From the NCBI RefSeq assembly GCF_030384885.1, contig NZ_CP128613.1: DNA of 64,000 nt, one strand, 5' to 3'. Below the pieces are notes generated by a model. The model saw nothing but the letters and a program-made list of their open reading frames with translations, was not told where the DNA came from and ran no database searches. Position numbers and translations under genes: made by a program. Shown here piece by piece: positions 5,220 to 29,467 of the stretch. The DNA is from Escherichia coli. Lineage in GTDB: Bacteria > Pseudomonadota > Gammaproteobacteria > Enterobacterales > Enterobacteriaceae. Every line of letters begins with the position of its first letter. Position 1 is the first letter of the stretch.

Positions 5220-5242
5220 GGTATAACAGGTATAAAGGTGCA
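5220..5242. promoter_or_regulatory. NanR operator-like tandem GGTATA repeats in the fimB-nanC intergenic region
   Basis: GGTATA-ACA-GGTATA-AA-GGTGCA; NanR is known to bind tandem GGTATA hexamers. Confidence 0.6.
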
Positions 5243-6375: not shown

Positions 6376-6394
6376 TAGACAGGAGACAGTCACA

Positions 6395-7501: not shown

Positions 7502-7565
7502 TGCTTCAGGGCCCCAGTAAAGGGGCCCTGCTATCAATTTATCATTTCAATTACGCGAAAATTAT

Positions 7566-8546: not shown

Positions 8547-8639
8547 GCGGGGAGTTTATTCATGGGGGATGTCCTTGTCCGTTCCCAAAACAGGCAACAA
8601 AAAACAAATGAGATCAAGGTAATATCTCTTCACTTGCAG

Positions 8640-8900
8640 GCTCGAACAGCAGGCAATTGCCAATATAATAATCTGGCACAAGGGTGAAAAACGCGCACCG
8701 CATAAACCGTTGTTATTGCTTACAGATTAGCCGGATGCCTTAATAGACATCCGCGCCTTTTCGATTATGGCTCGGAAATCTACGAACCTCTGCACAGTTT
8801 ACTGGAACGTTTTGGACCACAGCGTTCACAGTACCGACCTGATATGCCGTTCTGGCGATTATAAGGCGACGGATTCTGGCAAATAGACGATGATAATATG
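8640..8900 (+). pseudogene. Degraded fragment paralogous to the N-terminal domain of the HNH-nuclease gene at 19855-20730
   Basis: Frame-shifted translation gives NIIIWHKGEKRAPHKPLLLL and LFDYGSEIYEPLHSLLERFGPQRSQYRPDMPFWRL, matching NITIWRKGEQRAPHKPLLLL...RLFNYGSEIYEPLLDLLERYGPQRRDQRPDMPFWRL of the 20227-20775 ORF; stops and frameshifts present. Confidence 0.6.
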
Positions 8901-9128
8901 CTTAATGATGTTCAAAGAAATTAGGCCATCATTATATTATTGCTTGCATTTTCTTTCATTCCCAAAAGCACCCGCCATTAATCCCAGGCGCATTATGCAA
9001 AGGAAAATGATTAGGTAAACAATAAGATTTATAATCAGGAAAGGCGACTCGCAATAAAACGCAAAGTCGCCTTAACATTGGTAAAATATGCCCTTTACTA
9101 CTCCTGTATCATGAACGGCTCATCACAT

Positions 9129-12100
9129 TTAAAGCTGACGTTGATCCAGACTGCTATATATTGCCTTTATTTCATTTTTTACGCTTTCGCCACGGTACAC
9201 CAAAGACGTATCGTATCGTTGATACTTATCTTCCCGTGCAGCACTGAACCAGTTAAAAGATCCGACACACAGCAGTTCTTCATCCTCAATTACAATTTTG
9301 CTGTGGACACGATTAACCAATTTCGTAGCGATACCCATCTTATTGAGCTTTTCAACAGCATCATTCAGCAGATGTTTTTTCTCCTGACGCTTATCATCAT
9401 CGACATGCGCTATATTGCAGTTTTTATCCGTCACCACAGTAATATCAATGCCCCGGGAACGGGCCAAAGCCATTGATGCCAGAAATCCCGTTTGCTCCAT
9501 TTTTTGCCAGGATAACCAAGGGGAAATAATCGTTATTTTCTTTTGAGCTCCGGCAAGAGTCTTGTTCAAAAATTCATCATGCGGCTCCACGCCATGCAGC
9601 GTTGAAATTTGTGTATGTGCGGAAATTAAATCCTGTCGTTTATGAAACTCAAATTGCAACGCATTATTATCTGAAGAAAAGAGATATTTTGCCAATAACC
9701 CTCGCGGCGAAAATGCGGGCTGCATCTCGATAAGGTCCATATCGCCAAATACCAGAAAACTATCTTTAGCGCGTGAGACAGCAACATTGAGGATACTGCT
9801 GTTGCTATCAAGAAACCTGCCATCTTCATGTTTTGAGTAGACTGGAGAAAAGAGAACAATCGCCCTTTCCGCCCCCTGCAAGGAGTGCACAGTCCCCACT
9901 GTCAGTGAACCCTCCTCGTCTTTGCCATTAATTTCCAGCTTACGCAATGACGTTTTGATAGCATTAACCTGCGCCGAAAATGGCGTCACAACACCAACAA
10001 CTTTGTACAGTGGTTCCCCGTAATGGCGCTCTATATCATCCTTATGTGCCACCAGCCATGCTGCTATTGTTTCAGCTTCAAGAGGGTTATAACGGCTCCC
10101 CCCATTTGGCTTCATGCCTCTACCATCAATATGTAAATATCCCATTGCGGGGAAAATCGTCCCTTTTTCTATCCCTCTTTTAGGCTGCAACTTACCGTGA
10201 TAGCAAAGTGAGTTACAGTAGCCGATGATGTTATTGAAACAGCGACGATGCTCATACAGATACATTCCGCGCTCGAACTTGGGATCATACTGGTAGTGAG
10301 AGTTAAACTGGGCTACCTGCATTACGCTGCCAGATGCTGCACTTTTTCCAGACCCACACACGTGAGTATATGTATTTATTAACTCTTCCTGAGTGCCACC
10401 AGAAATAATATTCTCCTCAAGCATATTGCCCATATCAGTGACGGGTAGACAATTCCAGATTGGAGCTATTTGCTCCGTATCGCCAATCACCAGCGCTTTC
10501 TTCGCCAATGCAAAGGAAGCTGCAGCAACCTCCGGGAGTACCTGCCCGGCTTCATCGACAATCAGTAAATCAGCAAAGTTATATAAATAATTATTATCCG
10601 ATGTTCTATCGCCACCAAAAGATTTTCTTCTGTTCATATGGTAAGGCAACATGTAGCAGGTCATCACCACACAAGGAGTAAGTTTCATTCTTCTTAGCCA
10701 ACGAGCCTCGGCGATAGTTATCCCGGTAATTCCTTTTTCTTTTTGCAAATTATCTATAGCTGCCATATCAATCAGCCAACGCCCCTCCCAATAATGGGTC
10801 GCTACCAAGAACGCTGGAAAACGAATCTGAGTATCGGCAAGTTCATCCGCTCCTGAAAGATTCAATTCATCGTCACCTCTGTAACCCAAAGCATAAGTCA
10901 ACTCACGCCATTGTTTTGCAGCTTCTATTTCGCGTCGGGCTATATCCTTCGCATAGTTGATGTTCTGTTGGCACTCATCCTGCTCCTTTTGCGTTTTAGC
11001 AATCAAACTATCAATAAATTCATCAATATCTTCGGGATAATTTCCCTGGAACGATGTCATTCTTGTGCCAAACGTAGAGTCCAGGAAGAGGTTAATCTGG
11101 TAATGGCGTTTAGTACGAACAGCAGGAAGCCATGACAAAACCGCATACACTAGCGACTCATCAGCACGGTATTGCTGCCACTGCTTTTTACCTCTGGTTA
11201 AAAGTGAAATTTCATTGCCAATATTGAGAAGACGTGTATTTTCGTCCTGAAGATACTGGTCGAGATTCTCACTGATGGCTCGCTGTTCATGGCGGATATC
11301 ATTAAGCCTGCGCCATGCGGGTTCGATTTGCTGAAGTTGAATAAACTGTGAAGTTAAACGTTCATGCAAAAGCGTCACTACATGCTCTGGTGAATTGCAC
11401 TCTCCAGCTCCAAACGCCACCTCCGCTTTTTCAAGGTAAAATGCCCGGGCTTTTTCCAGATATTCCTGGGATTCAACGTGGTTAAAAAAATCTTCAGTCT
11501 GGTATTTCTTCGCAGCCTCAACCTGACGGCTTTTAGACGGAAAATAAGCGCCATAGCTTATTACCTCCGGCAACCAACGACCAGCCATTACGCCAAAACC
11601 AGTAGAGAAATCTTTTCCAAAGGCTTCAATAATATTGGTGACGGCCTGATTGTTAGTTGATGTGGCAATAATTACAGGAGGTTCAGCTTGATTAAGTGCG
11701 GCTCTAGTCCATTCGGTGGCGATAATAGAAAGCACCAGCGTAGTTTTACCCGTTCCCGGAGGACCGTTAACAGCGAGCATATCCCCCTGCTGTTGAGTCA
11801 GATAATGGCTCAGGGCATCGCGCTGCGCCACTGCCAGCGGAAACTTATCGCCGGAATGCCCCAGACGTTCGCAGAACATAGCATTCTTAGCGAGAAGTGG
11901 CTCTAGTGGAACCATTTCATTTGAGGCAAAACGCGTTAATAGAGGAACCTTAACCTGGCTCATCAGCAGATGGTCATACAAAGGCAGGATATGAACACTG
12001 GCCCCTACATGCTGGCTAGCTTTAACAATATAACCGTATCCAGCCCGTTCGTATGGCTCAGATGTAGCGACCCAATTTCCAGCGACGTTTCTTAAAAGGT

Positions 12101-12644
12101 TATCTGACTGTTGAAGATAATTTTGCCAATGCTGACGATACCTGGCATGGCGTTCCGCTTTCTCTTCGTCAGTTTCTTCGTAATGTTCTGGTTGACCTTC
12201 ATTAATGGTGGCTGTGTTATGCGTAGTTTTGTATTTGTCATATTGCACCAACTCACCAATAGAAAAATGACCGGAAGGGAGAGGTTCAAGCAGATCGCGG
12301 GGAATAGTGGCTGAAGCGGCAGGAAACAAAAAACCTTCCCTATTAAGAAGAGCGGAGGTAACCAGTGGCGTAATAATTGCGGGTGCACCTGCCGTTTGCT
12401 CTTTGCCATGCTTTACAATGCGGTTCCATACCTGGGGCCGTAACACGACTTCAACGTTTTTTACAGACTCCCCTTCACCGTCAAAAAATGCCCGAATAGT
12501 TTCGTCATCCAACTGCCCTGCGCTGATATTTATCCACCGAATGAATGATTCTGTATCTTTACGTGAAAACGTTCCTTTGCCAGATTCGGCGTCAGCTAAG
12601 GAGTTGCGCCAGTATGAAGTGAATCCCAATGTATTGCTGTCCAT
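9129..12644 (-). CDS. Large helicase-nuclease fusion: N-terminal unknown region, SF1 Upf1/DNA2-like helicase, C-terminal PLD (HKD) nuclease; type II Mokosh-like defence candidate
   Basis: 1171-aa ORF, ATG at 12644. Walker [13 protein letters not shown], Walker [10 protein letters not shown], helicase motif [18 protein letters not shown]-terminal HKD motif [19 protein letters not shown]. Confidence 0.85.
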
Positions 12645-12837
12645 TTCTCATTCCGTGACATAATAGAAATCATTGATTTCATTGATGTAAATATTACTTA
12701 TGATTAAACATTGTCCACGATGCGAGCGCGATCGCAATAAATATTGTGCCTGGAGGATGGATTAGATTTTCTGAAAGAGCTAAATCCTTAATAGATAAAC
12801 GCGTACATACTTGGTTCGGTATTCTTAAGGGATTTAA

Positions 12838-12961
12838 TATGGATTGAACCAGGTTGACGTTAGTTGAAAAAAACAGTGGAAAAGATTTGTGTGGCGCGGA
12901 TTTCAGGCATAAAAAAAGACCTCAGTTGAGGTCTATTTACATACTTTTGGTGCGAAGGCCG
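12838..12961. repeat. Direct repeat copy 1 (island-distal att-like site): leuX 3' flank plus 14 nt of tRNA 3' end
   Basis: 12894-12953 is a 60-bp perfect copy of 22361-22420; about 55 bp upstream shows roughly 85 percent similarity; ends in TGGTGCGAAGGCCG, matching the leuX 3' end with a 1-nt deletion. Confidence 0.8.
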
Positions 12962-13077
12962 CACCGCGATTCCAGACTCAACAATATGAAATCAATGGAC
13001 TTTTAAAAATGCGAAGTTACTTTGTATACTCACATGTATACTCAGTACCATTTCTTAAGAAATCAATTCATTCAATA

Positions 13078-13875
13078 CTACTCATCATCGTCTTCCACTG
13101 GTTCCAGCACATCAAGCGCAACTCTCACCATAGCGATAGAACCAATACGAATGAAAGCATCTTCTCCATCTTCGTCGGTTATCATAAAACGAACCGTGGT
13201 TTCAGGCTCGCAATCCAGCGCGTCAAAAAAAGCATTCAACTGGCCGATATCATCCGTCTCTTCGTTTTGCGGCGCATCTGGCTCAACACTCAGTGGAATC
13301 ACTGGTCCGCCGTTTACCAGCGTGATATGGACATTAAAATAATCGTCTTCGTAGGCATCATCCTCTTCGTCAACGATTGGCCGCAGACCATCAGAAAGGA
13401 ACTGATGAAATACCACTTCACGCATATTTAACGCATAACGATACTCGGAAGAATCAAAAACGAAGAAGCGTTCTATGTTTGGAGTGTTTTTTTCCTGAAA
13501 ATAATAATAAAACCTCCGCTTATCCACTGCTGAAATGGGCAACAGCAAATAGTCCCGCTGCCCCTGTAGCCAAAGTTTTACGGTCCAGAGACCGCTATCC
13601 ATTTCAATGCCGCTTGTGGCTATAGCCTCAAGATCTTCATCAGTTTTACGACGCTTTTTGCGGAAGTCATTTATCAACCGATCGCTTTCCGGGAACACTA
13701 CGTTTAGAGGCTTATCCAGAGCATTACATATTGCCTGTGCGAGCCCCAGCTTTGCAGCAACCTTCCCGGTTTCGATACGCTGAATTTGTTGCTGGCTGGT
13801 GCCGACCATAAACGCCAGCTCGCGCTGGGTGATAGATAGCTGGGTACGGAGCTGTTTGATGTTGTTCTGTAACAT
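13078..13875 (-). CDS. XRE-family HTH domain fused to an acidic C-terminal domain of unknown function
   Basis: N-terminal helix-turn-helix LSITQRELAFMVGTSQQQIQRIETGK; about 200-aa C-terminal region ending VEDDDE; preferred start ATG 13875 with GAAGGA RBS (alternative 13884). Confidence 0.7.
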   Translation of the reverse strand: MLQNNIKQLRTQLSITQRELAFMVGTSQQQIQRIETGKVAAKLGLAQAICNALDKPLNVVFPESDRLINDFRKKRRKTDEDLEAIATSGIEMDSGLWTVKLWLQGQRDYLLLPISAVDKRRFYYYFQEKNTPNIERFFVFDSSEYRYALNMREVVFHQFLSDGLRPIVDEEDDAYEDDYFNVHITLVNGGPVIPLSVEPDAPQNEETDDIGQLNAFFDALDCEPETTVRFMITDEDGEDAFIRIGSIAMVRVALDVLEPVEDDDE

Positions 13876-13989
13876 GGCATCCATCCTTCAGAAGGAGTAG
13901 AAAGTGCCATTAAAACACAAAATTGAGTATAAACACATAATCGTGTTTATACTCACTAATCAACACCCTTGAACGAAAAGAAAATCTCT

Positions 13990-14265
13990 TCATCGTTCTT
14001 CTCTAGTATGCCAGAGATCGACTATATAAATGTCATTGTCACGAAGTTCGTAGTGAACCTCATGGTCATCAAATAACACTTTTCGGACTTCCCGAGGTTC
14101 ATACCGAGTCTGCTGTACGCCAATTGCCGGATGTGCTGTAAGACCAGCACAACCAGTAATCAGGCGATCCAAAACGTCATCGGCGTGCTGGCGGCTATAC
14201 TGAAGGGCGAAACGGTAGATACGCTCAAGGTCATCCTGAGCTTTAAGCGTCCAGTAAATTTCCAT
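13990..14265 (-). CDS. ParE/RelE-superfamily toxin
   Basis: 91 aa, C-terminal IYIVDLWHTREER typical of ParE; starts 3 nt after the upstream RHH gene stop. Confidence 0.75.
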   Translation of the reverse strand: MEIYWTLKAQDDLERIYRFALQYSRQHADDVLDRLITGCAGLTAHPAIGVQQTRYEPREVRKVLFDDHEVHYELRDNDIYIVDLWHTREER

Positions 14266-14268
14266 TAA

Positions 14269-14517
14269 TCAGGATTTCTTTAAGCGATTAGCAAAATCCA
14301 CCATGTCCGAGTGGCTCACCACGCGACCGGCATCCACATCCGCAAGACCGGCCTGGATGCTCTGGTGACGCCGTTCTCTTTCGGCCAGCATACTGGTCAA
14401 CGCTTCCTTAATAATCCAGCTCTTAGAACGATCTAACTCAATTGCCAGATTCTCAACAGCAGCGGCCAATTCAATAGGTATCTGTGCGCTGATGGTTTGT
14501 TTAGTAAGCGAACCCAT
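14269..14517 (-). CDS. Ribbon-helix-helix (ParD/CopG-like) antitoxin
   Basis: Small ORF directly upstream of the ParE-like gene; RHH-like N-terminus; start at 14517 (GAGGT RBS) preferred over the ORF-track start 14541. Confidence 0.65.
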   Translation of the reverse strand: MGSLTKQTISAQIPIELAAAVENLAIELDRSKSWIIKEALTSMLAERERRHQSIQAGLADVDAGRVVSHSDMVDFANRLKKS

Positions 14518-14592
14518 AGGGATTACCTCGTTTAATAACATTTAATAACTCCTATTAATATTAGCATAAAGGTGCTTATAAAAACATCAATC

Positions 14593-15426
14593 TCATTTCG
14601 CAGGTAACATCCCCGGAAAGTGCTTCGCCACGATATCATTCATCTTCTCCACCAGATCCAGGCGTTTGAAAGTGATATGCCCACTGCCCTTCTGAAAGTA
14701 GCGAATAGTGAACAACTCATCTTCGAAAATCTGCTGATGCGGATTATCGCGCACAAAATCCATAAACCGGATGGAGACATCATGCCGGTTATCAGGAATG
14801 GTCTTTCCATCCAGCAGGTAGAACATCCGTTCCAGATCGGCAAGCTGATCTCTCCGCCAGCCCCAGTTCAGGCTGTAGCCCCATCTGTCATGCTTCACCA
14901 GATTGTTAACGATAATCTTCTTACCGAAATAACAGGGATTATTGGTTTTGTAATCCCAGCTCAATCCCTTAAATACATTGATAATCCCACGTTCGAAAAC
15001 GTCCTGCTTATTGTGGTGGAGTTGTTCAAAGGTACTCAGGATGTTGGCTTCGCTAATCGCCGGGAGATCGCCCTCCTCCAGGTTCTTTGCCCACTGACTG
15101 CGGGCTTCGGCATCCATCAAGGTCAACATCCCGGACTTCAGCATGAGATCGCGCCAGATGCTGCGATCGATATTGCGGGTGATCACCGGCATGGCTTTAT
15201 CCACCGGCTGCACCAGCCAGCAGTCGAAGGAATGGCCCTGACGCATCGCCCAATGCTCCGCCACATCACCACCGATGCTGGAGGTTAGCCGTGAGATATC
15301 ATCAAGCTTATGGATCAGGATTTCTATCAGACTCAACGCAGCATCACGACCCGTCACGATACGCTCAACACTGGTCGAGCAAATTAGCTCGTTATGATCG
15401 GTTAAGACTTCAGCTTCTGTTTGCAT
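14593..15426 (-). CDS. Conserved hypothetical protein of the type commonly encoded downstream of cbtA-family toxin genes (possibly DUF4942-like)
   Basis: 277 aa from ATG 15426 (ORF-track TTG start at 15450); no motif I can assign; position after CbtA-like toxin. Confidence 0.6.
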   Translation of the reverse strand: MQTEAEVLTDHNELICSTSVERIVTGRDAALSLIEILIHKLDDISRLTSSIGGDVAEHWAMRQGHSFDCWLVQPVDKAMPVITRNIDRSIWRDLMLKSGMLTLMDAEARSQWAKNLEEGDLPAISEANILSTFEQLHHNKQDVFERGIINVFKGLSWDYKTNNPCYFGKKIIVNNLVKHDRWGYSLNWGWRRDQLADLERMFYLLDGKTIPDNRHDVSIRFMDFVRDNPHQQIFEDELFTIRYFQKGSGHITFKRLDLVEKMNDIVAKHFPGMLPAK

Positions 15427-15540
15427 AATCTTTTGTCCGTATAAAAGCAAATGCGCCAGCCATGAACAGCAGGCGCATTATGCAGGGAGTTATGAGGGAA
15501 GTAATTTTGGCGATGTAAATCGGGAAGGAGACTCGCAGAT

Positions 15541-15882
15541 TCACCGTGCCGTGGTGTTATGGCAGCGACGCAGCAGACCTGTAGCCTGCCGCGCCCGCAA
15601 AATATCGACCGCACGAAGATAAGGCGTCTGTTCCCGCCAGCTAAATCCTTTCCTGTCGATACGGATCAATTCGTACTTCTCCACCAGAAAATTGATGGCA
15701 TCAACCAGAGTGATCCCGGCGTCTATGTGTTCCTGAATCACCTTTTCATTGTTGAATGGTGTGTCATTAAGGTTCAGTCCGTAGTGCTGCTCCAGCAGGC
15801 GGGCCAGTAATGTTTGCCAGACCACGACGGGCGACAGATATGACGTCGTCGCCCGCAGCGTCGTTGCAGGAATAATTTTCAT
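15541..15882 (-). CDS. CbtA/YeeV/YkfI-family toxin
   Basis: 113 aa, [60 protein letters not shown] resembles YeeV/YkfI/YpjF. Confidence 0.8.
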
Positions 15883-15912
15883 AACGATGTTCCGTATTAA
15901 GGAGGTTAAAAC

Positions 15913-16248
15913 TCAGCGTTGAGTGGGATAAATAGCGATATAGACGTAACCACAGGAACCCAGCGTATCGGCTTCGCAGGTTAGTCCTTTGGCGTATAGC
16001 GTGACGGTACGTTGTTGGCAGGGGGAGAGTTCACCGTCAGCCAGTTTCAGCTCCAGTTGTTTCATCAACACCGGAAAAGCCTGGTCGATATGCAGCAGAT
16101 CCGGGGAGCTGAATTTCCCGGTAATTGCGGCCCGATCAGCCAGGTAATGCAGGTTATGTCTTTCCTGTACCAGTCGAGCAGTGAAGCGTGGTGTTACGGT
16201 ACAGGGAAGCCCCCATTCTTGTTGCATGACCTTGTCCTTTTGCAGCAT
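15913..16248 (-). CDS. CbeA/YeeU/YafW-family antitoxin
   Basis: 111 aa, WGLPCTVTPRFTARLVQERHNLHYLADRAAI...TVTLYAKGLTCEADTLGSCGYVYIAIYP resembles YeeU/YfjZ; directly upstream of the toxin. Confidence 0.8.
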   Translation of the reverse strand: MLQKDKVMQQEWGLPCTVTPRFTARLVQERHNLHYLADRAAITGKFSSPDLLHIDQAFPVLMKQLELKLADGELSPCQQRTVTLYAKGLTCEADTLGSCGYVYIAIYPTQR

Positions 16249-16360
16249 TACAGCCAGCCCCGTTCGGCAAAAGAGAGGACATCCCCCGCCCCAATAATGA
16301 AATGATCCAGCACCCTCACTTTCACCAAATCCAGTGTCTTAACAATATTCGTTGTAATAA

Positions 16361-16909
16361 GTCTGTCGGCCCGACTGGGTTCCCTATGAGGTTGTCACGC
16401 ACACCACAGAATTCCTGCGCGAAGGCATCAAACGGGAGAAATTAAGCGACGCACAAATCCGCGAACTGGAAGAACAAGGCATAGATCCCAATACGCTGGA
16501 GTTTGATGGTAAGGCGCTGGATGAGGCGATCTACAACAAAGACACCAACCGCTATATCCTGCGTAACCTGATGGAAAATGGCCTGAAAGATCGGGACGGC
16601 CAGTTGCCTGGTAAAACCATCATTTTCGCCCGTAACCACAAACACGCGCTGCTGTTGAATGAATTGTTCGACGATATGTACCCGGAAGGGATTGATGCTG
16701 GCGTTGATTTTAAAGATCGCACGCAGGCGGCGTTTGTTGTACCAAAAGAAGATATTGCTGCGCAGAAATACGACCTCTCTATTAATCGTTATAAAGAAGT
16801 GGTGTATCAGGCTGAGGAGTATGAAGATCCGAAAGTGATACTGAAGCGGTTAAAAGATCTGGAAAATGAGATTCTGGCGGATCTGAATGAGCTGGAGGGA
16901 ATGCTGTGA
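16361..16909 (+). pseudogene. 5'-truncated remnant of the R-M gene that precedes hsdS (hsdM-like C-terminus)
   Basis: In-frame coding sequence from 16361 with no start until ATG 16571; C-terminal KYDLSINRYKE motif; stop overlaps hsdS start (GTGA at 16906-16909). Confidence 0.5.
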
Positions 16910-18090
16910 GTTGGCCGTTAGGAAAAGTTTCCGATATTGCTGCTGTTATATCCGGTTTTGCTTTTAAAAGCGAATGGTTTGGTACAGGAGACGCAAAGGT
17001 TATCCGAATTGGCGATCTTAAGAACGGAAAAATCGATCTTAGTGATGCAATGATCTTTGATCATAAAACTAATAAAGTTCGCGAACAATTTAGAATCAAA
17101 AGCGGCGATATTTTAATGGCTCTTTCTGGCGCAACTGTTGGGAAGATCGCAGTTGCTGATGCTGAAGCTGAAGGTGCATATCTTAATCAACGAGTAGCAG
17201 TGATTCGAGGGCGAAATCATGAAAATGCAGAATATTTAAAATACGTATTTTCAGGACACCCTCTCCAAAAACTACTCCTAAATGCAGGTGGTGCGGCACA
17301 GCCAAATCTTAGCTCTAAAGACTTGGCAGAGATGGAAATACCTATTCCCCCTCTTACCGAACAAAAAAGAATCTCAACCATACTTGATAAAGTAAATGGC
17401 ATACGTCAAAAGCGCGAGCAAGCCATAAAGCTGGCTGATAATTTTTTGCATACCATTTTTCATGAGATGTTTGGCGATCCTGTTAAAAACCCGAAGGGAT
17501 GGGATGTCGCCTCTTTATTAGAATATGGTTCATTCAAAAATGGAATGAATTTTTCAAAAGGTGAATTGGGATCTGCTTTGAAGTGCCTAGGAGTTGGTGA
17601 TTTCAAATCACTGGCAACGATTACCTGTATGGACAATATCGGTGAAATTGAATTAAATACTCTTCCTTCGGATGATTATCTTTTGAAAGATGGTGATATT
17701 GTCTTTGTCCGTTCTAATGGTAATAAAGCCTTGGTCGGAAGATGTCTTACTATTTATCCAAACAAAGAGAAAGTCACATTTAGTGGGTTTTGCATTCGAT
17801 ACAGAATAAAAAATCCTGCAATCACGCCAGAATATCTCAACTTCCTTTTCCGTACACCGTCAATGAAACAGCAAATGTTGAGCGGGGGCCAAGGGGCTAA
17901 TATTCAGAATATTAGCCAAGGTACCTTATCTGCACTCAGGATACCTGTACCTCCATTGGATAAACAACTTGCTTTTGCCAGATTGGTTGATTTCCATGCA
18001 TCTATTGTGAAAAAACAATATGATAAAATGGCTGAATCCGAAAAACTCTTCAATGCCTTGACTGGTGATTTTTTCACATTTAATGAGTGA
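16906..18090 (+). CDS. hsdS: Type I restriction-modification specificity subunit HsdS
   Basis: 394 aa, two target-recognition-like halves with conserved spacer motifs (NQRVAVIRG, LPPLTEQKRI, IPVPPLDKQ); GTG start with RBS GGAGGGA. Confidence 0.85.
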   Translation: MSWPLGKVSDIAAVISGFAFKSEWFGTGDAKVIRIGDLKNGKIDLSDAMIFDHKTNKVREQFRIKSGDILMALSGATVGKIAVADAEAEGAYLNQRVAVIRGRNHENAEYLKYVFSGHPLQKLLLNAGGAAQPNLSSKDLAEMEIPIPPLTEQKRISTILDKVNGIRQKREQAIKLADNFLHTIFHEMFGDPVKNPKGWDVASLLEYGSFKNGMNFSKGELGSALKCLGVGDFKSLATITCMDNIGEIELNTLPSDDYLLKDGDIVFVRSNGNKALVGRCLTIYPNKEKVTFSGFCIRYRIKNPAITPEYLNFLFRTPSMKQQMLSGGQGANIQNISQGTLSALRIPVPPLDKQLAFARLVDFHASIVKKQYDKMAESEKLFNALTGDFFTFNE

Positions 18091-18145
18091 TGGTTTATAG
18101 GATAACTCATTCATTACAAAATTTATTAAATACATAGAGGGGCAA

Positions 18146-18691
18146 ATGGGTACATATATCTCAGATAAAACAGAAACATGTTTTGATGAATATTCTTTAA
18201 TCGAAAAAGTCGGGGATGGCTATAAGATTAGTGTGTACTCATTTAAGCTTCATACAGGAAATCCTTACCAGCCACATATATCAGAAAGTTATAGTGGTGA
18301 TATTTTTATTAGCTATTTGTACTATGGAAATGATTCTTATTACGAGCGCAGACGTCAGGAATACAGAAAATATTTATCATTAAAAGAAATCCACCTTGCT
18401 ATTCTAAAGATGTTTCCAGATGAGCGAAGAATTGCGATAGGTATAAAAAAAGAAAATTACAGTACCGTAAAAATAACTTATGCGGCAGCGGATGAAGTAT
18501 ATCTTCTTGATATTAAAAATAAAGAGACATTATTGTTAGATAATATATTATGTCTATATGATGTTATTTATAAGCATGAAAGCAACATTAATAAATTGGA
18601 AGGCGAGTTAGCAAGTAGTAAAAAAGAACTCCAAAGTATGAAGATAGATATAAAAGAAAAATGTAAATCTATTCTTGATATTGTTGATTAG
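18146..18691 (+). CDS. Hypothetical protein, AT-rich, predicted C-terminal coiled coil
   Basis: 181-aa ORF, ATG 18146 with RBS AGAGGGG; markedly lower GC than neighbours; no recognisable motif. Confidence 0.55.
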   Translation: MGTYISDKTETCFDEYSLIEKVGDGYKISVYSFKLHTGNPYQPHISESYSGDIFISYLYYGNDSYYERRRQEYRKYLSLKEIHLAILKMFPDERRIAIGIKKENYSTVKITYAAADEVYLLDIKNKETLLLDNILCLYDVIYKHESNINKLEGELASSKKELQSMKIDIKEKCKSILDIVD

Positions 18692-18811
18692 TAAAAACAA
18701 CCCCAGTGGCAATAATTCATTGATATGGAACTCTTCTAATGGCTGAAATATTTTCTTTGCGTTATGATGTTTTGTTCTACAGCCTTGAGATTTCACGTCA
18801 GGAAAGTAACC

Positions 18812-19777
18812 ATGCCTTTAGATTTAAGTAATACTTTAGTTATTGGCATTAGCGCAACTGCGCTTTTTGACATGAGCGAATCGGATCGCATGTTTCGGGA
18901 AACCTATGCGACCGATCCGGATAGTGCCATTGAGAAGTATCGTGCTTATATGCTGGAACACGAAAACCAGCCTTTACAGCCCGGAACAGGCTACCCCTTA
19001 GTCAAAGCGTTGCTGGGGCTGAACCGGTACCGCCAGCCGGATGATAAATCGCCGTTGGTTGAGGTTGTTGTGATGTCGCGCAACAGTCCTGATACCGGTA
19101 TCCGCGTTTTGAATACCATTCGCCATGACAAACTCGATATTACACGTTCAGCTTTTACCGCAGGTGAAACCGTTGCCGATTACCTTGATGCCTTTGATGT
19201 GGATCTGTTTTTAACAACCAACGTTGAAGATGCGCAAAAGGTGATTGATTCCCGATTCTGCGCCGCTGCAATCCTGAAAGATCCGCCTTCTGACGCATCT
19301 GATATCCCGGAAGGGCAAGTGCGCATTGCTTTTGACGGCGACGCGGTACTTTTTTCCGATCAAAGCGAACTGGTTTATAAGACCCAAGGAATGGCTGCCT
19401 TTCATGCTCAGGAAGACGCGCAGCAGGATATCCCTATGGAAGAGGGGCCTTATGCCACTTTGCTAAAAAAAATAGCCAAGCTTCAGGAACGATTGCCGAC
19501 CCGCGTTGAGTATTCTCCTGTTCGTATTGCGCTGGTGACAGCCCGAAATAGCCCTTCGGAAATGCGCGTTATTAAAACGCTAAGAAGCTGGGGGGTATAT
19601 GTCGATGAAGCTTTTTTTCTTGGCGGTGTAGAGAAAACAAAAGTTCTGAAGGCGTTTAGGCCACACATTTTCTTTGACGATCAGGATGTGCATTTGATCG
19701 CGGCTGCAAAGGTAGTACCTTCTGGTAAAGTACCTTATGCCAGTAACTCCGAACTGGCAGAACGTGAAGCATCGTAA
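18812..19777 (+). CDS. HAD-superfamily 5'-nucleotidase-like protein
   Basis: 321 aa from MPLDLSNTLVIGISATALFD; HAD-like motifs FDGDAVLF (DxDxV), VTARNSPSE, FFDDQDVH; RBS AGGAAAG. Confidence 0.6.
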   Translation: MPLDLSNTLVIGISATALFDMSESDRMFRETYATDPDSAIEKYRAYMLEHENQPLQPGTGYPLVKALLGLNRYRQPDDKSPLVEVVVMSRNSPDTGIRVLNTIRHDKLDITRSAFTAGETVADYLDAFDVDLFLTTNVEDAQKVIDSRFCAAAILKDPPSDASDIPEGQVRIAFDGDAVLFSDQSELVYKTQGMAAFHAQEDAQQDIPMEEGPYATLLKKIAKLQERLPTRVEYSPVRIALVTARNSPSEMRVIKTLRSWGVYVDEAFFLGGVEKTKVLKAFRPHIFFDDQDVHLIAAAKVVPSGKVPYASNSELAEREAS

Positions 19778-19854
19778 TTATCGCTAACAAACCATTTAGT
19801 CATTAAGGCTGGATGGTTTGTATACCACACGCAAAATAACTGCCCTCCCCCAGA

Positions 19855-20730
19855 TCAATGCTCTCCTCTGAACACCTCTTTTCTGTGCCATTCCACAAAC
19901 CGCTCGCCAGGATAATTTTCTTTAACCGGTGGCAACGCAATCGCCTTTCCTGCAAAATCCCAGAACAGCCGCTGTACCACCCCACCGCCATTTACCGCGC
20001 CGGAAACCACCACACGCATATTTTCATCCAAACCAATCGAACCACGATCAAACGCTTTATGATGGATGGCGCACAATGCCAGGCCATTAGGTACTTCACA
20101 AGGGCCATGGTGCTGCTTCCATCTGATATGAGCGGCTTCCAGAGCAATCGGCGCATTGTCGTGGCGCATGTTAAAGCCGCAGATAGCGCACTGATAATTG
20201 TAAGCACGTAGCACCATCTGACGGAACTACGGATCGCGTTGACGGAGAGAGGTGCGAATATCAAAACCCATCTCGTCAGCTATCTCTTCCTGAATACTGG
20301 CCGGGAAATGCGCCTCCAGGAGCTGCTGCGCCAGCGTATCAATTAACCTGTGATTTTTTGCCACCAAAGCAAAATTATCGGCATCAAATCCACCAGCAAC
20401 ATTATATTCAATGAGTTCACGTCGGGGCGGCTGGCGGCTACCACTGGTTGAGCACAGTTCCGCGTTATGTAGTTCCCAGAAGCCATCGCCCTTCAGACGC
20501 CAGAACGGCATGTCCGGGCGCTGGTCACGGCGCTGCGGTCCATAACGTTCCAGTAGATCCAACAGGGGCTCGTAGATTTCAGAACCATAGTTAAACAGGC
20601 GACCATGACCCTGCCGATAGTGTGAGAGAACGTACAGCAGCAATAATGGCTTATGTGGCGCACGTTGTTCGCCTTTGCGCCAGATGGTGATATTTGATAT
20701 CGCTTGTTTTAGGGTTTTGTCAGAGGTCAT
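19855..20730 (-). pseudogene. HNH endonuclease-family gene with unknown N-terminal domain, interrupted by one in-frame amber (TAG) codon
   Basis: ORFs 20227-20775 and 19855-20217 are in the same frame, separated only by TAG at 20229-20227 plus 3 sense codons; C-terminal part has HNH motifs CAICGF...EAAHIRWKQHHGP...NGLALCAIHHKAFD. Confidence 0.7.
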
Positions 20731-20861
20731 TGCGTTGGAGAATCCATGAGCACATATTTGCGATGATGCTCGCAACTATATGTACATTCAAGGCATTATT
20801 GCAGACATCCTTTTTCTCTGGCGGTTCTGTACCTGGCAGATAGAATTCTGATAACAACGGT

Positions 20862-20908
20862 AAAAAATACAGCGACCAACCAGTCCTAAGCGGGCTGGTT
20901 GGTCTTTT
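20862..20908. terminator. Hairpin terminator downstream of intB (bidirectional appearance)
   Basis: Stem GACCAACCAG / CTGGTTGGTC with T-run on + (TTTT 20905-20908) and A-run upstream (T-run on minus). Confidence 0.5.
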
Positions 20909-20945
20909 AAATTTAAACATCAGCCGAGGAATAACGGCATTCAAC

Positions 20946-22214
20946 TCACTCGCCATTCCCCCGGTTGATCTTCGCATAGTCAAACGGCGTAATCGCTCTT
21001 TCCCGATTGGCATCCAGAAAATCAGCCCACCACTGTAACATCAGCTTGCGCTCATCCAGATGTTCCGCTTTATGGATATACGCCGCCCTCACCGAATTGC
21101 GTTCCATATGGCTCATCTGGCGCTCCACCGCATCCTTCGACCATAGCCCTGACTCAATTAACGAACTACAGGCCATTGTACGGAAGCCGTGGCCGCAAAC
21201 TTCAACCTTAGTGTCATAACCCATCACCCGTAGCGCACTGTTTACCGTGTTCTCGCTCATGGGCTTACGCGGATCGTGATCGCCAATAAAAATCAGCTCA
21301 TGTTCGCCACAGAACTGTTTTATCTGCTTCAGGATCGCCAGCGCCTGCTTTGAAAGCGGCACCAGATGAGGTGTGCGCATCTTTGAACCTCGCTGAGAAT
21401 GTTTCACGCCGGGAATCGGTTCTCGCTCAGGCGGGATGGTCCACATTGATGTTTCAAAATCGATCTCTGACCAGCGAGCAAAACGCAGCTCACTGGATCG
21501 AATAAAAATAAGCAGAGTAAGTTCGGTTGCCCAGCGGGTTAGCGGCCTGCCGGTATAGCCGTCTATTTTCTCAAGCAACTCAGGGATGCGCTTTAACTCC
21601 AGCGCCGGACGATGCTGTCGATTACTGGAAGCAACCGCCCCTGCCATCTCTTGCGCCGGATTGTAATCAATTAACCCGCTTTGCACTGCATAACGCATGA
21701 TGGCCGTGGTGCGCTGTTGAAGGCGGGAAGCCACCTCAAGACGTCCGGATTTCTCCACGGCTTTAATAGGAATTAACAGATCGCGGGTGCCCAGTTCAGC
21801 AATATTGTGGGAACCAATTGCCGGGAAGATATTGTCCTCCAGGCTCTTTTTTACACGATTAGCATGATCTTCCGACCATTTTTGGTTGGTTACGAGCCAC
21901 TCTTTGGCAACCTTCTCGAAAGTAATAATCTCTTTCGCCTGCTCTTCTTTCACAGCACGCTTATGCTCACGAGGATCGATACCAGCAGCTACCAGCTTTC
22001 TGGCCTCTTCCCTTTTCTTCCTGGCATCCGCCAGCGAAACATCCGGGTAAACGCCGAACGCCATCAAATGTTGTTTACCACCAAAACGGAAACGAAATCG
22101 CCAATACTTTGAACCGCCAGGTTTTACAAGTAAGGACATGCCGTCGCCGTCAACAAGTGAATACTCTTTCTCCTCAGGTTTCGCAGAGCGAACTTTAGTA
22201 TCCGTTAGGGCCAT
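20946..22214 (-). CDS. intB: P4-type tyrosine integrase (IntB-like)
   Basis: 422 aa from MALTDTKVRSAKPEEKEY with RBS GGAAGGAAG; C-terminal tyrosine-recombinase catalytic region; adjacent to tRNA-Leu. Confidence 0.9.
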   Translation of the reverse strand: MALTDTKVRSAKPEEKEYSLVDGDGMSLLVKPGGSKYWRFRFRFGGKQHLMAFGVYPDVSLADARKKREEARKLVAAGIDPREHKRAVKEEQAKEIITFEKVAKEWLVTNQKWSEDHANRVKKSLEDNIFPAIGSHNIAELGTRDLLIPIKAVEKSGRLEVASRLQQRTTAIMRYAVQSGLIDYNPAQEMAGAVASSNRQHRPALELKRIPELLEKIDGYTGRPLTRWATELTLLIFIRSSELRFARWSEIDFETSMWTIPPEREPIPGVKHSQRGSKMRTPHLVPLSKQALAILKQIKQFCGEHELIFIGDHDPRKPMSENTVNSALRVMGYDTKVEVCGHGFRTMACSSLIESGLWSKDAVERQMSHMERNSVRAAYIHKAEHLDERKLMLQWWADFLDANRERAITPFDYAKINRGNGE

Positions 22215-22304: not shown

Positions 22305-22420
22305 GTGGGTTGAGTCAGGTTGACTTCAGTTGAGGGGAAAAGCTGGAAAAGCCTTGTGTAGCGCGGATTTCAGGCATAAAAAAAGACCTCAGTTGAGGTC
22401 TATTTACATACTTTTGGTGC
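22305..22420. repeat. Direct repeat copy 2 (integrase-proximal), covering the leuX terminator hairpin and tRNA 3' end
   Basis: 22361-22420 identical to 12894-12953; contains GACCTCAGTTGAGGTC hairpin plus T-run on the minus strand (leuX terminator). Confidence 0.8.
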
Positions 22421-22499
22421 CGAAGGCCGGACTCGAACCGGCACGTATTTCTACGGTTGATTTTGAATCAACTGCGTCTACCGATTTCGCCACTTCGGC
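22415..22499 (-). tRNA. leuX: tRNA-Leu (CAA anticodon), leuX
   Basis: Reverse complement reads GCCGAAGTGGCGAAATCGGTAGACGCAGTTGATTCAAAATCAACCGTAGAAATACGTGCCGGTTCGAGTCCGGCCTTCGGCACCA, 85 nt with encoded CCA. Confidence 0.95.
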
Positions 22500-22694
22500 A
22501 CTGAAGAGGTATGCGGAAAACGTTGTGGATTATACCTGTCACGCGCCACCATGCAAGCGCCAGCTTGCTCCCACCTCGCTAAGTGCTGAAATTTTCAGCA
22601 TTACATACAGCGATGTGCAACCTTTGTCACACTCCAGGCACCACGCCCTACCATGCTCTACACTTCCCAGACAACACCAGAGAAGGACAAAAAT

Positions 22695-23714
22695 ATGTCG
22701 ATGATAAAAAGCTATGCCGCAAAAGAGGCTGGCGGCAAACTGGAAGTTTATGAGTACGATCCCGGTGAACTGAAACCACAAGATGTCGAAGTGCAGGTGG
22801 ATTACTGCGGGATCTGCCATTCCGATCTGTCGATGATCGACAACGAATGGGGATTTTCACAATATCCGCTGGTTGCCGGGCATGAGGTGATTGGTCGCGT
22901 GGTGGCGCTCGGGAGCGCCGCGCAGGATAAAGGTTTGCAGGTCGGTCAGCGTGTCGGGATTGGCTGGACGGCGCGTAGCTGCGGGCATTGCGACGCCTGT
23001 ATTAGCGGTAATCAGATCAACTGCGAGCAAGGTGCGGTGCCAACAATTATGAATCGCGGCGGTTTTGCCGAGAAGTTGCGTGCAGACTGGCAATGGGTGA
23101 TCCCACTGCCGGAAAATATCGATATCGAGTCCGCCGGGCCGCTGTTGTGCGGCGGTATCACGGTCTTTAAACCACTGTTGATGCACCATATCACCGCCAC
23201 CAGTCGCGTTGGGGTAATTGGTATTGGCGGGCTGGGGCATATCGCTATAAAACTTCTGCACGCAATGGGATGCGAGGTGACGGCCTTTAGTTCGAATCCG
23301 GCGAAAGAGCAGGAGGTGCTGGCGATGGGTGCCGATAAAGTGGTGAATAGCCGCGATCCGCAGGCTCTGAAAGCACTGGCGGGGCAGTTCGATCTCATTA
23401 TCAATACCGTGAACGTCAGCCTCGACTGGCAGCCCTATTTTGAGGCGCTGACGTATGGCGGTAATTTCCACACCGTCGGTGCGGTTCTCACGCCGTTGCC
23501 GGTTCCGGCCTTTACGCTGATTGCGGGCGATCGCAGTGTCTCTGGCTCTGCTACCGGCACGCCTTATGAGTTGCGTAAGCTGATGCGCTTTGCCGCCCGC
23601 AGCAAGGTTGCGCCGACCACCGAACAGTTCCCAATGTCGAAAATTAACGACGCCATTAAGCATGTACGCGATGGTAAAGCGCGCTACCGAGTGGTCCTGA
23701 AAGCCGACTTCTGA
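22695..23714 (+). CDS. ahr: NADPH-dependent aldehyde reductase Ahr (zinc alcohol dehydrogenase family)
   Basis: 339 aa from [14 protein letters not shown]; zinc-ADH motifs ([15 protein letters not shown]). Confidence 0.95.
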
Positions 23715-23843
23715 TCCCTTTGCCGGGTGCCTGTCGCCCGGCTTTTAAATCTCTTTGGAAGGCGTCTCGCAATCTGCTGAATTTAGCGGTGAAGAGTGCG
23801 CAGCCGTTGCCTATACTCCAGGCAGGAAACTGGAGGATATCTC

Positions 23844-25346
23844 ATGAGCGAACCCCTGTTAATTGCCCGCACGCCGGACACAGAACTGTTTTTGCTGCCG
23901 GGAATGGCTAACCGTCACGGGCTGATTACTGGCGCAACGGGGACGGGTAAAACCGTTACGCTGCAAAAACTGGCAGAGTCATTGTCGGAAATCGGTGTTC
24001 CGGTGTTTATGGCCGATGTGAAAGGTGATTTAACGGGAGTAGCGGAGGAAGGTACATCTTCGGAAAAACTGCTCGCAAGGCTTAAAAATATCGGCGTCAA
24101 TGACTGGCAACCACATGCTAATCCGGTGGTGGTGTGGGATATCTTTGGCGAAAAAGGCCACCCGGTGCGGGCGACGGTTTCAGACCTGGGGCCGCTGTTG
24201 CTGGCGCGACTGTTGAATCTCAACGATGTGCAATCTGGCGTGCTGGATATCATCTTCCGCATTGCTGATGATCAGGGGCTGTTACTGCTCGACTTTAAAG
24301 ATTTGCGGGCGATTACCCAGTACATCGGCGATAACGCCAAATCCTTCCAGAATCAGTACGGTAATATCAGTAGCGCATCGGTTGGTGCCATCCAGCGCGG
24401 GCTGTTATCGCTGGAACAGCAAGGCGCAGCACACTTCTTTGGTGAGCCGATGCTGGATATCAAAGACTGGATGCGTACCGATACCAACGGTAAAGGCGTT
24501 ATCAATATCCTCAGCGCCGAGAAGCTTTATCAGATGCCGAAACTGTACGCCGCCAGCCTGCTGTGGATGCTTTCAGAGTTATATGAACAATTGCCTGAAG
24601 CGGGCGATCTGGAGAAACCAAAACTGGTGTTTTTCTTCGACGAAGCACATCTGCTGTTTAACGATGCGCCACAGGTACTGCTGGATAAGATTGAGCAGGT
24701 GATAAGGCTTATTCGCTCAAAAGGCGTGGGCGTCTGGTTCGTTTCGCAAAACCCGTCGGATATCCCGGATAATGTGCTCGGCCAGCTAGGTAATCGCGTT
24801 CAACACGCTTTGCGGGCTTTTACGCCCAAAGATCAGAAAGCAGTAAAAGCTGCGGCGCAAACCATGCGGGCCAATCCGGCGTTTGATACCGAAAAGACAA
24901 TCCAGGAACTGGGGACCGGCGAGGCGTTAATCTCGTTTCTCGATGCGAAAGGAAGTCCTTCAGTGGTGGAACGGGCGATGGTTATCGCGCCTTGTTCGCG
25001 AATGGGGCCGGTGACGGAAGATGAGCGTAACGGCCTGATTAATCACTCCCCGGTGTATGGCAAGTACGAGGATGACGTGGACCGGGAATCCGCCTATGAG
25101 ATGTTGCAAAAAGGCTTTCAGGCCAGTACCGAGCAGCAAAATAATCCTCCCGCGAAAGAGAAAGAGGTGGCGGTGGATGACGGTATTCTTGGTGGATTGA
25201 AGGATATTTTGTTTGGCACTACCGGACCACGCGGCGGGAAGAAAGATGGCGTGGTGCAAACAATGGCGAAAAGCGCCGCCCGCCAGGTGACGAATCAGAT
25301 TGTGCGTGGTGTGCTGGGGAGTTTGCTGGGGGGGAGAAGAAGGTAA
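23844..25346 (+). CDS. yjgR: P-loop ATPase YjgR (DUF853)
   Basis: 500 aa from [10 protein letters not shown], Walker [17 protein letters not shown]. Confidence 0.9.
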
Positions 25347-25364
25347 GTCAGGTGCGATTTGTCT

Positions 25365-25404
25365 TTGCCTGATGCGACGCTGGCGCGCCTTATCATGCCT
25401 ACAC
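25365..25404. repeat. REP element
   Basis: GCCTGATGCGACGCTGGCGCGCCTTATCATGCCTACA, typical REP palindromic unit. Confidence 0.7.
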
Positions 25405-25506
25405 TACTGCAATATATTGAATTTTCATGATTTTTCAGGCATGAACGAAGCACACTTTGCTAACAATAATAAAGGGAGCTTTCGCTCCCTTTATTCGTTC
25501 ATCAGG

Positions 25507-26589
25507 TTACGATTTTCTCATTAACAGCCACAGGCTGATTAAGAAGAAGCTGGCGCTTGGCAGCAACGCGCCGATAATCGGCGGGATGCCGTAAACCAAC
25601 GTCAGCGGGCCGAAGATCTGGTCCAGTACGTAGAAGACAAAACCGAAGCTGATACCGGTGACCACACGCACGCCCATCGGTACGCTACGCAGTGGGCCAA
25701 AGATAAACGACAGCGCCATCAGCATCATCACCGCCACGGATAGCGGCTGGAAGATTTTGCTCCACATGTTGAGCTGATAACGTCCGGCATCCTGACCGCT
25801 CGACTTCAGATACTTCACATAGTTGTGCAAACCACTGATGGAGAGGGCATCCGGGTCCAGTGCCACCACGCCCAGTTTGTCCGGCGTGAGGTTGGTTTTC
25901 CAGGTACCGCTCACCGTCTGTGAACCAGTGATCTGTTTCGGATTGGTCAGATCAGATTCATCAACCTGCGACAGACGCCATACTTTATGTTCCGGGTCAA
26001 ACTTCGCGGTAGCGGCATAGCGAACAGATTGCAGACGACGATTCTCATTAAAGGCATAGATACTGATGCCACCTAACTCTTCGTCACCTTTAACCCGCTC
26101 AATGTAGACGAAGTTGTTGCCATCTTTTGCCCATAAACCTTGCTGGGTAGAGAGCAACGAGCCACCGTACATCGCCTGCGCGCGGTAGTTACGCGCCATC
26201 TGCTCGCCCTGCGGTGCGACCCATTCGCCAATCGCCATCGTCAACAAGACCAGCGGAATGGCGGTTTTCATCACCGACAGCGCCACCTGCATACGGGTAA
26301 AACCAGAAGCCTGCATGACCACCAGTTCGCTGCGCTGTGCCAGCATCCCCAACCCAAGTAATGCACCCAGCAGAGCCGCCATCGGGAAGAAGATTTGCAC
26401 ATCTTTCGGCACGCTCAGCAAGGTATACATTCCTGCGCCTAACGCGTCGTAACTCCCCTGCCCGGCTTTTTTCAGCTGATCGACAAACTTGATAATGCCC
26501 GACAGCGACACCAGCATGAACAGCGTCATCATGATGGTGGTGAAAATAGTTTTACCGATATAGCGGTCAAGTACGCCAAAAGGTTGCAT
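25507..26589 (-). CDS. lptG: LPS export ABC permease LptG
   Basis: 360 aa from MQPFGVLDRYIGK; start overlaps lptF stop (ATGA). Confidence 0.95.
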   Translation of the reverse strand: MQPFGVLDRYIGKTIFTTIMMTLFMLVSLSGIIKFVDQLKKAGQGSYDALGAGMYTLLSVPKDVQIFFPMAALLGALLGLGMLAQRSELVVMQASGFTRMQVALSVMKTAIPLVLLTMAIGEWVAPQGEQMARNYRAQAMYGGSLLSTQQGLWAKDGNNFVYIERVKGDEELGGISIYAFNENRRLQSVRYAATAKFDPEHKVWRLSQVDESDLTNPKQITGSQTVSGTWKTNLTPDKLGVVALDPDALSISGLHNYVKYLKSSGQDAGRYQLNMWSKIFQPLSVAVMMLMALSFIFGPLRSVPMGVRVVTGISFGFVFYVLDQIFGPLTLVYGIPPIIGALLPSASFFLISLWLLMRKS

Positions 26590-27689
26590 CACACCGCTCC
26601 TTTACGCGAAAAACTGGCGCGCAGGCGGCGGACCGGCACGGTGTCCCAAAGGTTGAGAACAATCGCCAAAGCCAGATAAATCAGGTTTACGGTCCACATC
26701 CACAACGTCGGGTCCAGCTTACCTTTACCGCCGTTCGATTTCAGGGAGGTCTGGATCAGGAAGAACAACAGATACAGCAGCATGGCTGGCAGCATCGACA
26801 GTACGCGCCCCTGACGCGGGTTAACCACGCTCAGCGGAACGACCATAAGCGCCATCATAAACACGGTGAATACCAGCGTGATACGCCAGTTCAGTTCTGC
26901 GCGGGCACGATCGGTGTCAGTGTTCCACAATGTGCGCATGTCCATCTGGTCAGTATCGTTCGGGTCGAGCGCCACCGCCTGGTGACCAATGATCGCCTGA
27001 TAATCCTGGAAGTCCGTAATGCGGAAATCGCGTAACAGTGCAGTGCCTTCGAAGCGCGTTCCCTGGTTGAGAGTGACGACCTGGGAGCCGTCGCGCAGCT
27101 GGGTTAAATGTCCGGAATCGGCCACCACCACAGAAGGACGTGCATTACCTTTTGGTCGAATTTGCGCGAGGAACACATCTTTGAAATCGCTGCCGTCAAC
27201 GCTTTCGATGAACAGCACCGAGCTGCCATTAGTCGCTTGCTGGAATTGCCCTTGCGCCAGCGCCGCCATGCCAGGGTTCGCTTTCGCTTCTGCTAACACT
27301 TCATCCTGATGACGCGATGACCACGGTCCCGCCCACATCACGTTAACCGCCGCGACGATTGCCGTGAATACCGCAAGGATCATTGCCGCTTTCACCAGAA
27401 CCGCTTTGCTCAAGCCGCAGGCATGCATTACCGTAATTTCACTTTCGGTATACAGTTTGCCCAGCGTCATCAGCAGCCCGAGGAACAGGCTTAATGGCAG
27501 GATAAGCTGCGCCATTTCCGGCACGCCCAACCCGAGAAGGGAGAGCACCAGATTCGCCGGAATATCGCCGTCAACCGCTGCGCCGAGGATCCTCACTAAC
27601 TTTTGACAGAAGAAGATCAAAAGCAAGATGAAGAGTATCGCCAGCTGGCTTTTGAGCGTCTCCCGCACCAGATATCTTATGATTATCAC
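26589..27689 (-). CDS. lptF: LPS export ABC permease LptF
   Basis: 366 aa, MIIIRYLVRETLKSQ... Confidence 0.95.
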   Translation of the reverse strand: MIIIRYLVRETLKSQLAILFILLLIFFCQKLVRILGAAVDGDIPANLVLSLLGLGVPEMAQLILPLSLFLGLLMTLGKLYTESEITVMHACGLSKAVLVKAAMILAVFTAIVAAVNVMWAGPWSSRHQDEVLAEAKANPGMAALAQGQFQQATNGSSVLFIESVDGSDFKDVFLAQIRPKGNARPSVVVADSGHLTQLRDGSQVVTLNQGTRFEGTALLRDFRITDFQDYQAIIGHQAVALDPNDTDQMDMRTLWNTDTDRARAELNWRITLVFTVFMMALMVVPLSVVNPRQGRVLSMLPAMLLYLLFFLIQTSLKSNGGKGKLDPTLWMWTVNLIYLALAIVLNLWDTVPVRRLRASFSRKGAV

Positions 27690-27952
27690 TTTAAATACGC
27701 CCGTAAAAACTCGTCTTTTGCAGGATTTTAGCTTGTTTCATGGCTTAAACGTCATTTATTCTCTTGAGTCGTCGAAATCGTCGCTAAGATAATTATACTC
27801 AACGGATTCACCTCTCAGATTTTGTTCTGACGTGCCAATGCCGTAATAACGTTAAGATTAACACGAAGTCATCGCAACAGCGGACATGAGTTACGAAAGC
27901 TTGCAATTCTATCTGTAGCCACCGCCGTTGTCTTTAAGATTCAGGAGCGTAG

Positions 27953-29467
<1,515 letters not shown>

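Follow-up and report, generated by a model that had tools for sequence, protein, structure and literature searches.

In Escherichia coli K-12, the subsidiary gluconate/L-idonate (GntII) locus comprises idnK and idnDOTR (b4264–b4268). In the established pathway, L-idonate is turned into 5-ketogluconate by IdnD (L-idonate 5-dehydrogenase) and then into gluconate by IdnO (5-ketogluconate 5-reductase), and the gluconate is phosphorylated by IdnK; IdnT is the importer of the substrate and IdnR the regulator of the operon. The product names in the K-12 annotation accord with these pathway roles. In MG1655 the annotated order is yjgR (b4263), idnR, idnT, idnO, idnD, idnK and ahr (b4269), with 5,126 bp from the yjgR start to the ahr stop. 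This arrangement agrees with the K-12 map given in an earlier, sequence-only reading of the DNA studied here, and disposes of the objection that ahr and yjgR might be neighbours in K-12 as well.

The portions of four reports considered here describe idn as variable in the manner of an accessory block, which is also how it appears at the locus under study. idnO, idnD, idnR, idnK and idnT are listed as a block in a Scoary table of pangenome associations, at 83% of one genome set versus around 31.5% of the other (PMC8545132); terms for L-idonate degradation are enriched in non-O157 STEC associated with HUS (PMC4216125); idnK was not detected in the ST131 strains JJ1886 and S250 (PMC5369007); and Salmonella Typhi is described as being without idnDOTK, with idnD affecting gut fitness in farm animals (PMC6138749). 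These portions treat presence and absence only, without the anatomy of the junction or the alternative 90-bp segment described below. The feature under study is an ordinary, already documented accessory-gene polymorphism, found in its majority state, and idn presence or absence is of some ecological interest given the portions of these reports that concern gut fitness in Salmonella and enrichment in some groups of pathogenic E. coli. The small addition made here is the anatomy of the junction, together with the probable standing of the idn-less form as an old allele with a 90-bp spacer segment of its own.

Anatomy of the ahr–yjgR junction

The window, by which we mean the whole stretch of 64,000 nucleotides analysed, is 100% identical to the 5.03-Mb chromosome NZ_CP027579.1 of E. 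coli 2013C-4282, which was used for all chromosome-wide searches. In the window, ahr and yjgR are contiguous and co-directional (Table 1). The ahr stop codon is a TGA at 23712–23714 and yjgR begins with an ATG, leaving a measured gap of 129 bp that contains no idn homologue; both the distance of about 130 bp and the absence of idn genes between the two flanking genes had been noticed in the sequence-only reading. Ahr matched NF047908.1 over profile positions 1–335 of 335 (555.8 bits, cut-off 470), as expected of a member of this equivalog family, and is 98.5% identical in protein sequence to K-12 Ahr. An alternative in-frame ATG lies upstream at 22653; the start given in Table 1 is preferred because it agrees with both the family match and RefSeq. 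YjgR is 98.4% identical to its K-12 counterpart; its NCBIfam matches, to HerA and CedD, were all sub-threshold.

Table 1. Positions of the junction, its flanking genes and selected genes of the adjacent island in the window
Feature	Coordinates	Strand	Basis or remark
Island: 1,137-aa DEAD/DEAH helicase	11798–15211		
Island: type I R-M subunits M and S	15275–18090		
Island: phosphorothioate-DNA-dependent restriction endonuclease pseudogene	19855–20730		
leuX, tRNA-Leu(CAA)	22415–22499	−	ARAGORN; also annotated in the identical RefSeq genome; landmark on the left side of the locus
ahr (yjgB), NADPH-dependent aldehyde reductase	22695–23714	+	NCBIfam NF047908 equivalog and RefSeq; left flank of the slot
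ahr–yjgR spacer, 129 bp	23715–23843	+	Direct sequence reading and ORF list
90-bp segment of the idn-less allele, in place of the 5,087-bp idnK–idnDOTR cassette	23715–23804	+	BLAST break points
Intrinsic-terminator-like hairpin, GCCGGGTG/CGCCCGGC, 8 pairs, then TTTT	23722–23746	+	Terminator scan
yjgR leader, 39 bp, common to both alleles	23805–23843	+	100% identical to K-12
yjgR, HerA-like/DUF853 P-loop ATPase	23844–25346	+	RefSeq annotation; right flank of the slot

BLAST comparison of the window with K-12 gave two collinear blocks, window 22505–23714 with K-12 4496399–4495190 (94.5% identity) and window 23805–25500 with K-12 4490102–4488407 (94.6% identity), between which the window has 90 bp and K-12 has 5,087 bp (NC_000913.3 4490103–4495189). 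One break point coincides with the ahr stop and the other lies precisely 39 bp ahead of yjgR; apart from words of 9–12 nt, nothing in the K-12 region corresponds to the 90-bp segment. The difference from K-12 is a replacement. Both arrangements occupy the same chromosomal site, with leuX and ahr on one side and yjgR, lptG, lptF and pepA on the other, and the 39-bp yjgR leader is identical in the two; the window lacks all five idn genes and has in their place the 90 bp with a putative ahr terminator. In K-12, ahr converges with idnK, their stop codons lie only 3 bp apart, and the hairpin of the window is missing.

The hairpin itself spans 23722–23742, beginning 8 nt past the ahr stop codon. Its predicted fold (−16.3 kcal/mol, z = −2.95) and the run of T residues that follows suggest that it may serve as the terminator of ahr. 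The yjgR leader contains TATACT (23812–23817), a Shine–Dalgarno sequence, GGAGGA (23832–23837), and an inverted repeat, CTCCAG/CTGGAG (6 bp with 8 nt between; 23816–23821 and 23830–23835), that overlaps the Shine–Dalgarno sequence. The leader is almost invariant in the loci of E. albertii and two Citrobacter described below, although coding DNA is only around 82% identical between E. coli and Citrobacter, and its core, GGTTGCCTATACTCCA, is also conserved in Enterobacter and Leclercia; a promoter role is conceivable. We only infer regulatory roles for spacer and leader because no Rfam family matched the spacer at E ≤ 1, the fold of 23800–23860 was no better than shuffles (z = −0.29) and a sigma-70 consensus scan of the + strand of spacer and leader called no promoter. 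On these respective grounds, a known RNA element in the spacer, a structured yjgR leader and a sigma-70 promoter for yjgR were dropped.

A 12-mer, TC[C/T]CTTTGCCGG, occurs both at the start of the 90-bp segment (window 23715–23726) and in K-12 (NC_000913.3 4490105–4490116), where it ends the idn-specific sequence, 2 bp from the shared block. The score of this match was reached by 22 of 1,000 shuffles; it could be the vestige of an insertion event, or chance.

Distribution and age of the two alleles

Allele frequencies were taken from a set of 5,426 complete E. coli genomes. Of these, 3,212 (59%) have ahr directly next to yjgR, and the 90-bp segment was found in 3,222, with at least 80% of its length in 3,211. 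The K-12 idn cassette is present in 2,055 genomes, near full length in 2,038 and at least 99% identical to K-12 in 1,973. The idn-less (3,212 by contiguity, 3,222 by segment) and idn-positive (2,055) classes are nearly complementary, and the idn-less form is the majority form in E. coli, K-12 having the minority form. O157:H7, IAI1 and ATCC 8739 are idn-less, whereas K-12 and O104:H4 carry idn. We take K-12 and ATCC 8739 to belong to phylogroup A and O104:H4 and IAI1 to B1, which places both alleles within each of these two phylogroups. The junctions of O157:H7, IAI1, ATCC 8739 and E. albertii NBRC 107761 resemble that of the window, with ahr, a spacer of 129–130 bp containing the 90-bp segment, and yjgR. 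The segment is 95–98% identical in most E. coli and matches at 83 of 90 positions in E. albertii; the genes flanking the slot in the window are unusually diverged, with most genomes 90–96% identical over ahr–yjgR and the best other genome 97.3%.

Related species were sampled by a contig scan based on YjgR, with one genome per species. The matches listed were mostly from Betaproteobacteria and included eight usable Enterobacterales loci, none of them from Salmonella; one E. albertii and two Citrobacter loci served as close outgroups. In E. albertii, ahr and yjgR are separated by a 129-bp spacer that matches the 90-bp segment at 83 of 90 positions, a score reached by none of 1,000 shuffles. Citrobacter werkmanii is likewise idn-less, with a 136-bp spacer whose right part matches the segment at 41 of 48 positions (again 0 of 1,000 shuffles). 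The spacer is thus orthologous in these two related species, as expected of an old allele and not of a lineage-specific scar. The other Citrobacter, sp. FP75, carries idnK, idnD, idnO, idnT and idnR in the same slot, in the same orientation and with the same right-hand boundary as K-12; its left boundary differs, in that ahr is separated from idnK by a hairpin spacer of 31 bp, compared with 3 bp in K-12. DNA identity between K-12 and FP75 is 78.5–83.3% for the idn genes and 83.6% and 82.2% for the flanking ahr and yjgR, values that are indistinguishable. Because the 90-bp spacer segment is kept in E. albertii and C. werkmanii and the idn genes of FP75 are as diverged as their flanks, both alleles appear to be old.

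These comparisons lead us to a reading that we favour with considerable confidence: the slot is polymorphic, with the idn-less allele present in the window; both alleles are old, the idn-less one did not come from deletion of a K-12-type cassette, and the two are probably exchanged by recombination. The slot is bounded by the ahr stop codon and the conserved 39-bp yjgR leader. In the idn-less allele, the 90 bp would supply ahr with a terminator of its own; in the K-12 allele, the slot holds the 5.1-kb GntII cassette, with idnK convergent with ahr, followed by idnD, idnO, idnT and idnR co-directional with yjgR. The idn-less allele would either never have been interrupted or have been re-acquired by recombination, as opposed to arising by deletion of a K-12-type cassette, and within E. 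coli, lineages may have exchanged the two alleles by way of homologous recombination in the genes on either side.

As a different explanation, the lineage of this strain might recently have deleted the idn operon of a K-12-like ancestor. The operon lies at precisely this site in K-12 and in 2,055 other genomes, differences of this kind often arise through gene loss, and one report attributes the absence of idnDOTK from Salmonella Typhi to loss (PMC6138749). We nevertheless consider a recent deletion very unlikely. The 90 bp in the slot are absent from the K-12 allele; 3,222 E. coli genomes share them, as do E. albertii and, for part of their length, C. werkmanii, and the segment contains neither residual idn fragments nor a K-12-type junction, only a 9–12-nt word. 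No deletion of a K-12-type cassette could give rise to the 90-bp segment, so the window probably does not carry a fresh deletion; the idn-less form is probably an old alternative allele. An allele that does look decayed, in strain MLI104K2 (NZ_CP116925.1), differs from that of the window by keeping pieces of idnK, idnT and idnR and a K-12-type right junction. This 928-bp mosaic (positions 8959–9886 of locus L083), unique among the 5,426 genomes, consists of 18 bp of the idnK 3′ end, around 37 bp of idn-less spacer, a 5′ fragment of idnT, a fragment of idnR and the K-12-type right junction; the idnT and idnR fragments are around 88% identical to K-12 and the joins lie at short shared words. It looks like the outcome of illegitimate recombination, or of decay of a diverged idn cassette.

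More distant genera fill the slot differently. Enterobacter, Leclercia and Enterobacter sp. Ag1 have around 1.8–1.9 kb between ahr and yjgR, which in Enterobacter cloacae (locus L006, 8217–9863) codes, on the opposite strand, for an ATP-dependent glycerone (dihydroxyacetone) kinase (TIGR02361, 575.8 bits). Local alignments of the 90-bp segment with the Enterobacter and Leclercia slots were no better than shuffles, 395 and 840 of 1,000 of which, respectively, reached the score; on this account we rejected an ancestry of the segment reaching back to these genera, which MAFFT alignment had suggested. A broader proposal, which we put forward tentatively, is that several species share an ancient cassette slot at the ahr–yjgR junction. 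An empty allele, with an ahr terminator of its own, and an idn allele would each be older than the Escherichia/Citrobacter boundary or have crossed it repeatedly, and glycerone kinase would be a third occupant, in Enterobacter and Leclercia; the dimorphism in E. coli might then be maintained by selection on the availability of L-idonate and 5-ketogluconate in the gut and shuffled among phylogroups by recombination mediated by the flanks.

Around 150 of the 5,426 E. coli genomes have neither idn nor the 90-bp segment. Counts of matched places suggest that these have a single partial match, for instance with one flank missing. Glycerone kinase was considered as the slot occupant in these genomes and set aside: a homologue 67% identical over at least 80% of the query was found in only 18 E. 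coli genomes, at positions in the genome that the search leaves unspecified, so the group is not accounted for in this way.

Possible allele exchange, polarity and flank diversity

Exchange between lineages was assessed in one strain pair and in a set of ten E. coli sequences. Between O104:H4, which carries idn, and IAI1, which does not, identity reaches 99.83% across 7 kb on the right of the slot, where the first 600 bp contain no mismatch. On the left, over ahr and the leuX spacer, it is only 96.6%, and divergence there peaks beside the slot. This pattern, as expected of a recombination tract that ended at the slot, suggests that such a tract replaced ahr together with the slot content. Across the ten sequences, ahr identity per quarter is 96.7–99.8% among idn-positive strains and 92.7–96.8% among idn-less strains. 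Four differences are fixed between the two classes within the final 19 bp of ahr; yjgR has none.

The direction of the change is a question of polarity within the two-old-alleles reading, not an alternative to it. The idn-less form could be ancestral and the K-12 cassette a later insertion in place of the 90 bp, having arisen once before or near the divergence of Escherichia and Citrobacter and spread by recombination. The orthology of the spacer and its putative ahr terminator across three species is in keeping with this polarity, as are the far greater ahr diversity among the idn-less members of the ten-strain set and the fact that 1,973 of the 2,055 cassettes share 99% or more identity with K-12, which would fit a younger haplotype within E. 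coli. Against it, the cassette is as diverged from its FP75 copy as the core flanks are and is thus not young overall, and the more distant Enterobacter and Leclercia give no polarity. On balance, we see the arguments for and against an idn-less ancestor as evenly weighted. The wider reading, in which two old alleles are exchanged by recombination, accommodates this polarity.

The flanks of the slot are themselves variable. Among the ten E. coli, ahr and yjgR are around 92–98% identical, with minima of around 92–94%, compared with around 98–100% for lptFG and pepA among mainstream strains, which makes 22695–25346 a local peak of diversity relative to 25507–29467 (lptG–lptF and pepA). The peak is possibly due to the neighbouring leuX hotspot. 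The flanking genes are also sometimes inactivated: the annotation of E. coli strain 131 lists yjgR (locus L085, 12130–13632) as a pseudogene containing an internal stop, and ahr is annotated as incomplete in E. coli RMDEC465 (locus L091, 7096–8112).

Predicted idonate catabolism and surroundings of the locus

Searches of the 64-kb window found no idn homologue closer than 28% protein identity. With K-12 IdnD and IdnO as tblastn queries, the window yielded only paralogues at 25–27% identity (ahr itself and bdcA); IdnK and IdnT had no match, and IdnR matched only a LacI-family paralogue at 46957–47850 (21%). The interval between ahr and yjgR, at 129 bp, holds no idnK, idnT or idnR. For the rest of the chromosome, we ran a chimeric query, in which the strain's own junction was joined to K-12 idnO/idnD, against NZ_CP027579.1 in blastn mode. 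The junction was the sole place matched, that is, no idnO or idnD DNA was detected anywhere on this chromosome at blastn sensitivity, whereas a positive control of the same design with gntU/gntK matched two places, indicating that gntK and gntU are present.

These searches bear on the notion that the idn genes have been relocated to another part of the genome. Since the window amounts to just 64 kb of the 5.03-Mb chromosome, there is room for such a move, but nothing was found in its favour: the idnO/idnD query matched one place where the gntU/gntK control matched two, and all 2,070 matches to K-12 idn in the genome collection were chromosomal, with none on a plasmid. We regard relocation as extremely improbable, even more so than a recent deletion; absence of the operon as part of the idn-less allele accounts for the observations better.

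Because the chimeric query revealed no idnO or idnD and the control found gntU and gntK, we predict that the strain has lost L-idonate and 5-ketogluconate catabolism and retained the main, GntI system. From its gene content, it would be without the route from L-idonate through 5-ketogluconate and gluconate to 6-phosphogluconate, would use neither L-idonate nor 5-ketogluconate, and would have one gluconokinase instead of two; the predicted loss is limited to L-idonate and 5-ketogluconate use. The sequence-only reading had proposed a strain-level difference in gluconate/idonate catabolic potential, of which the idonate part stands as a prediction; the gluconate part is tempered by the presence of the main gluconate genes, gntK and gntU.

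Among the 5,426 complete genomes, none other is closely related to the source strain, judged from regions such as window 22600–25400 and 40000–44000: the best match other than itself is 97.3% identical over ahr–yjgR and 99.2% over bdcA–pyrBI. Its lptFG and pepA are 96–97.5% identical to those of mainstream E. coli, which share 98.3–100% among themselves, and these values suggest that the strain represents a rare, deep lineage. To the left of the locus, leuX is the attachment site of a genomic island (window around 2600–22214) with a tyrosine integrase at 20946–22214. Besides the genes in Table 1, the island encodes a 5′-nucleotidase, WYL, GTPase, RadC and DUF932 proteins and a CbtA/YeeU toxin–antitoxin. 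A different island occupies leuX in every strain compared.
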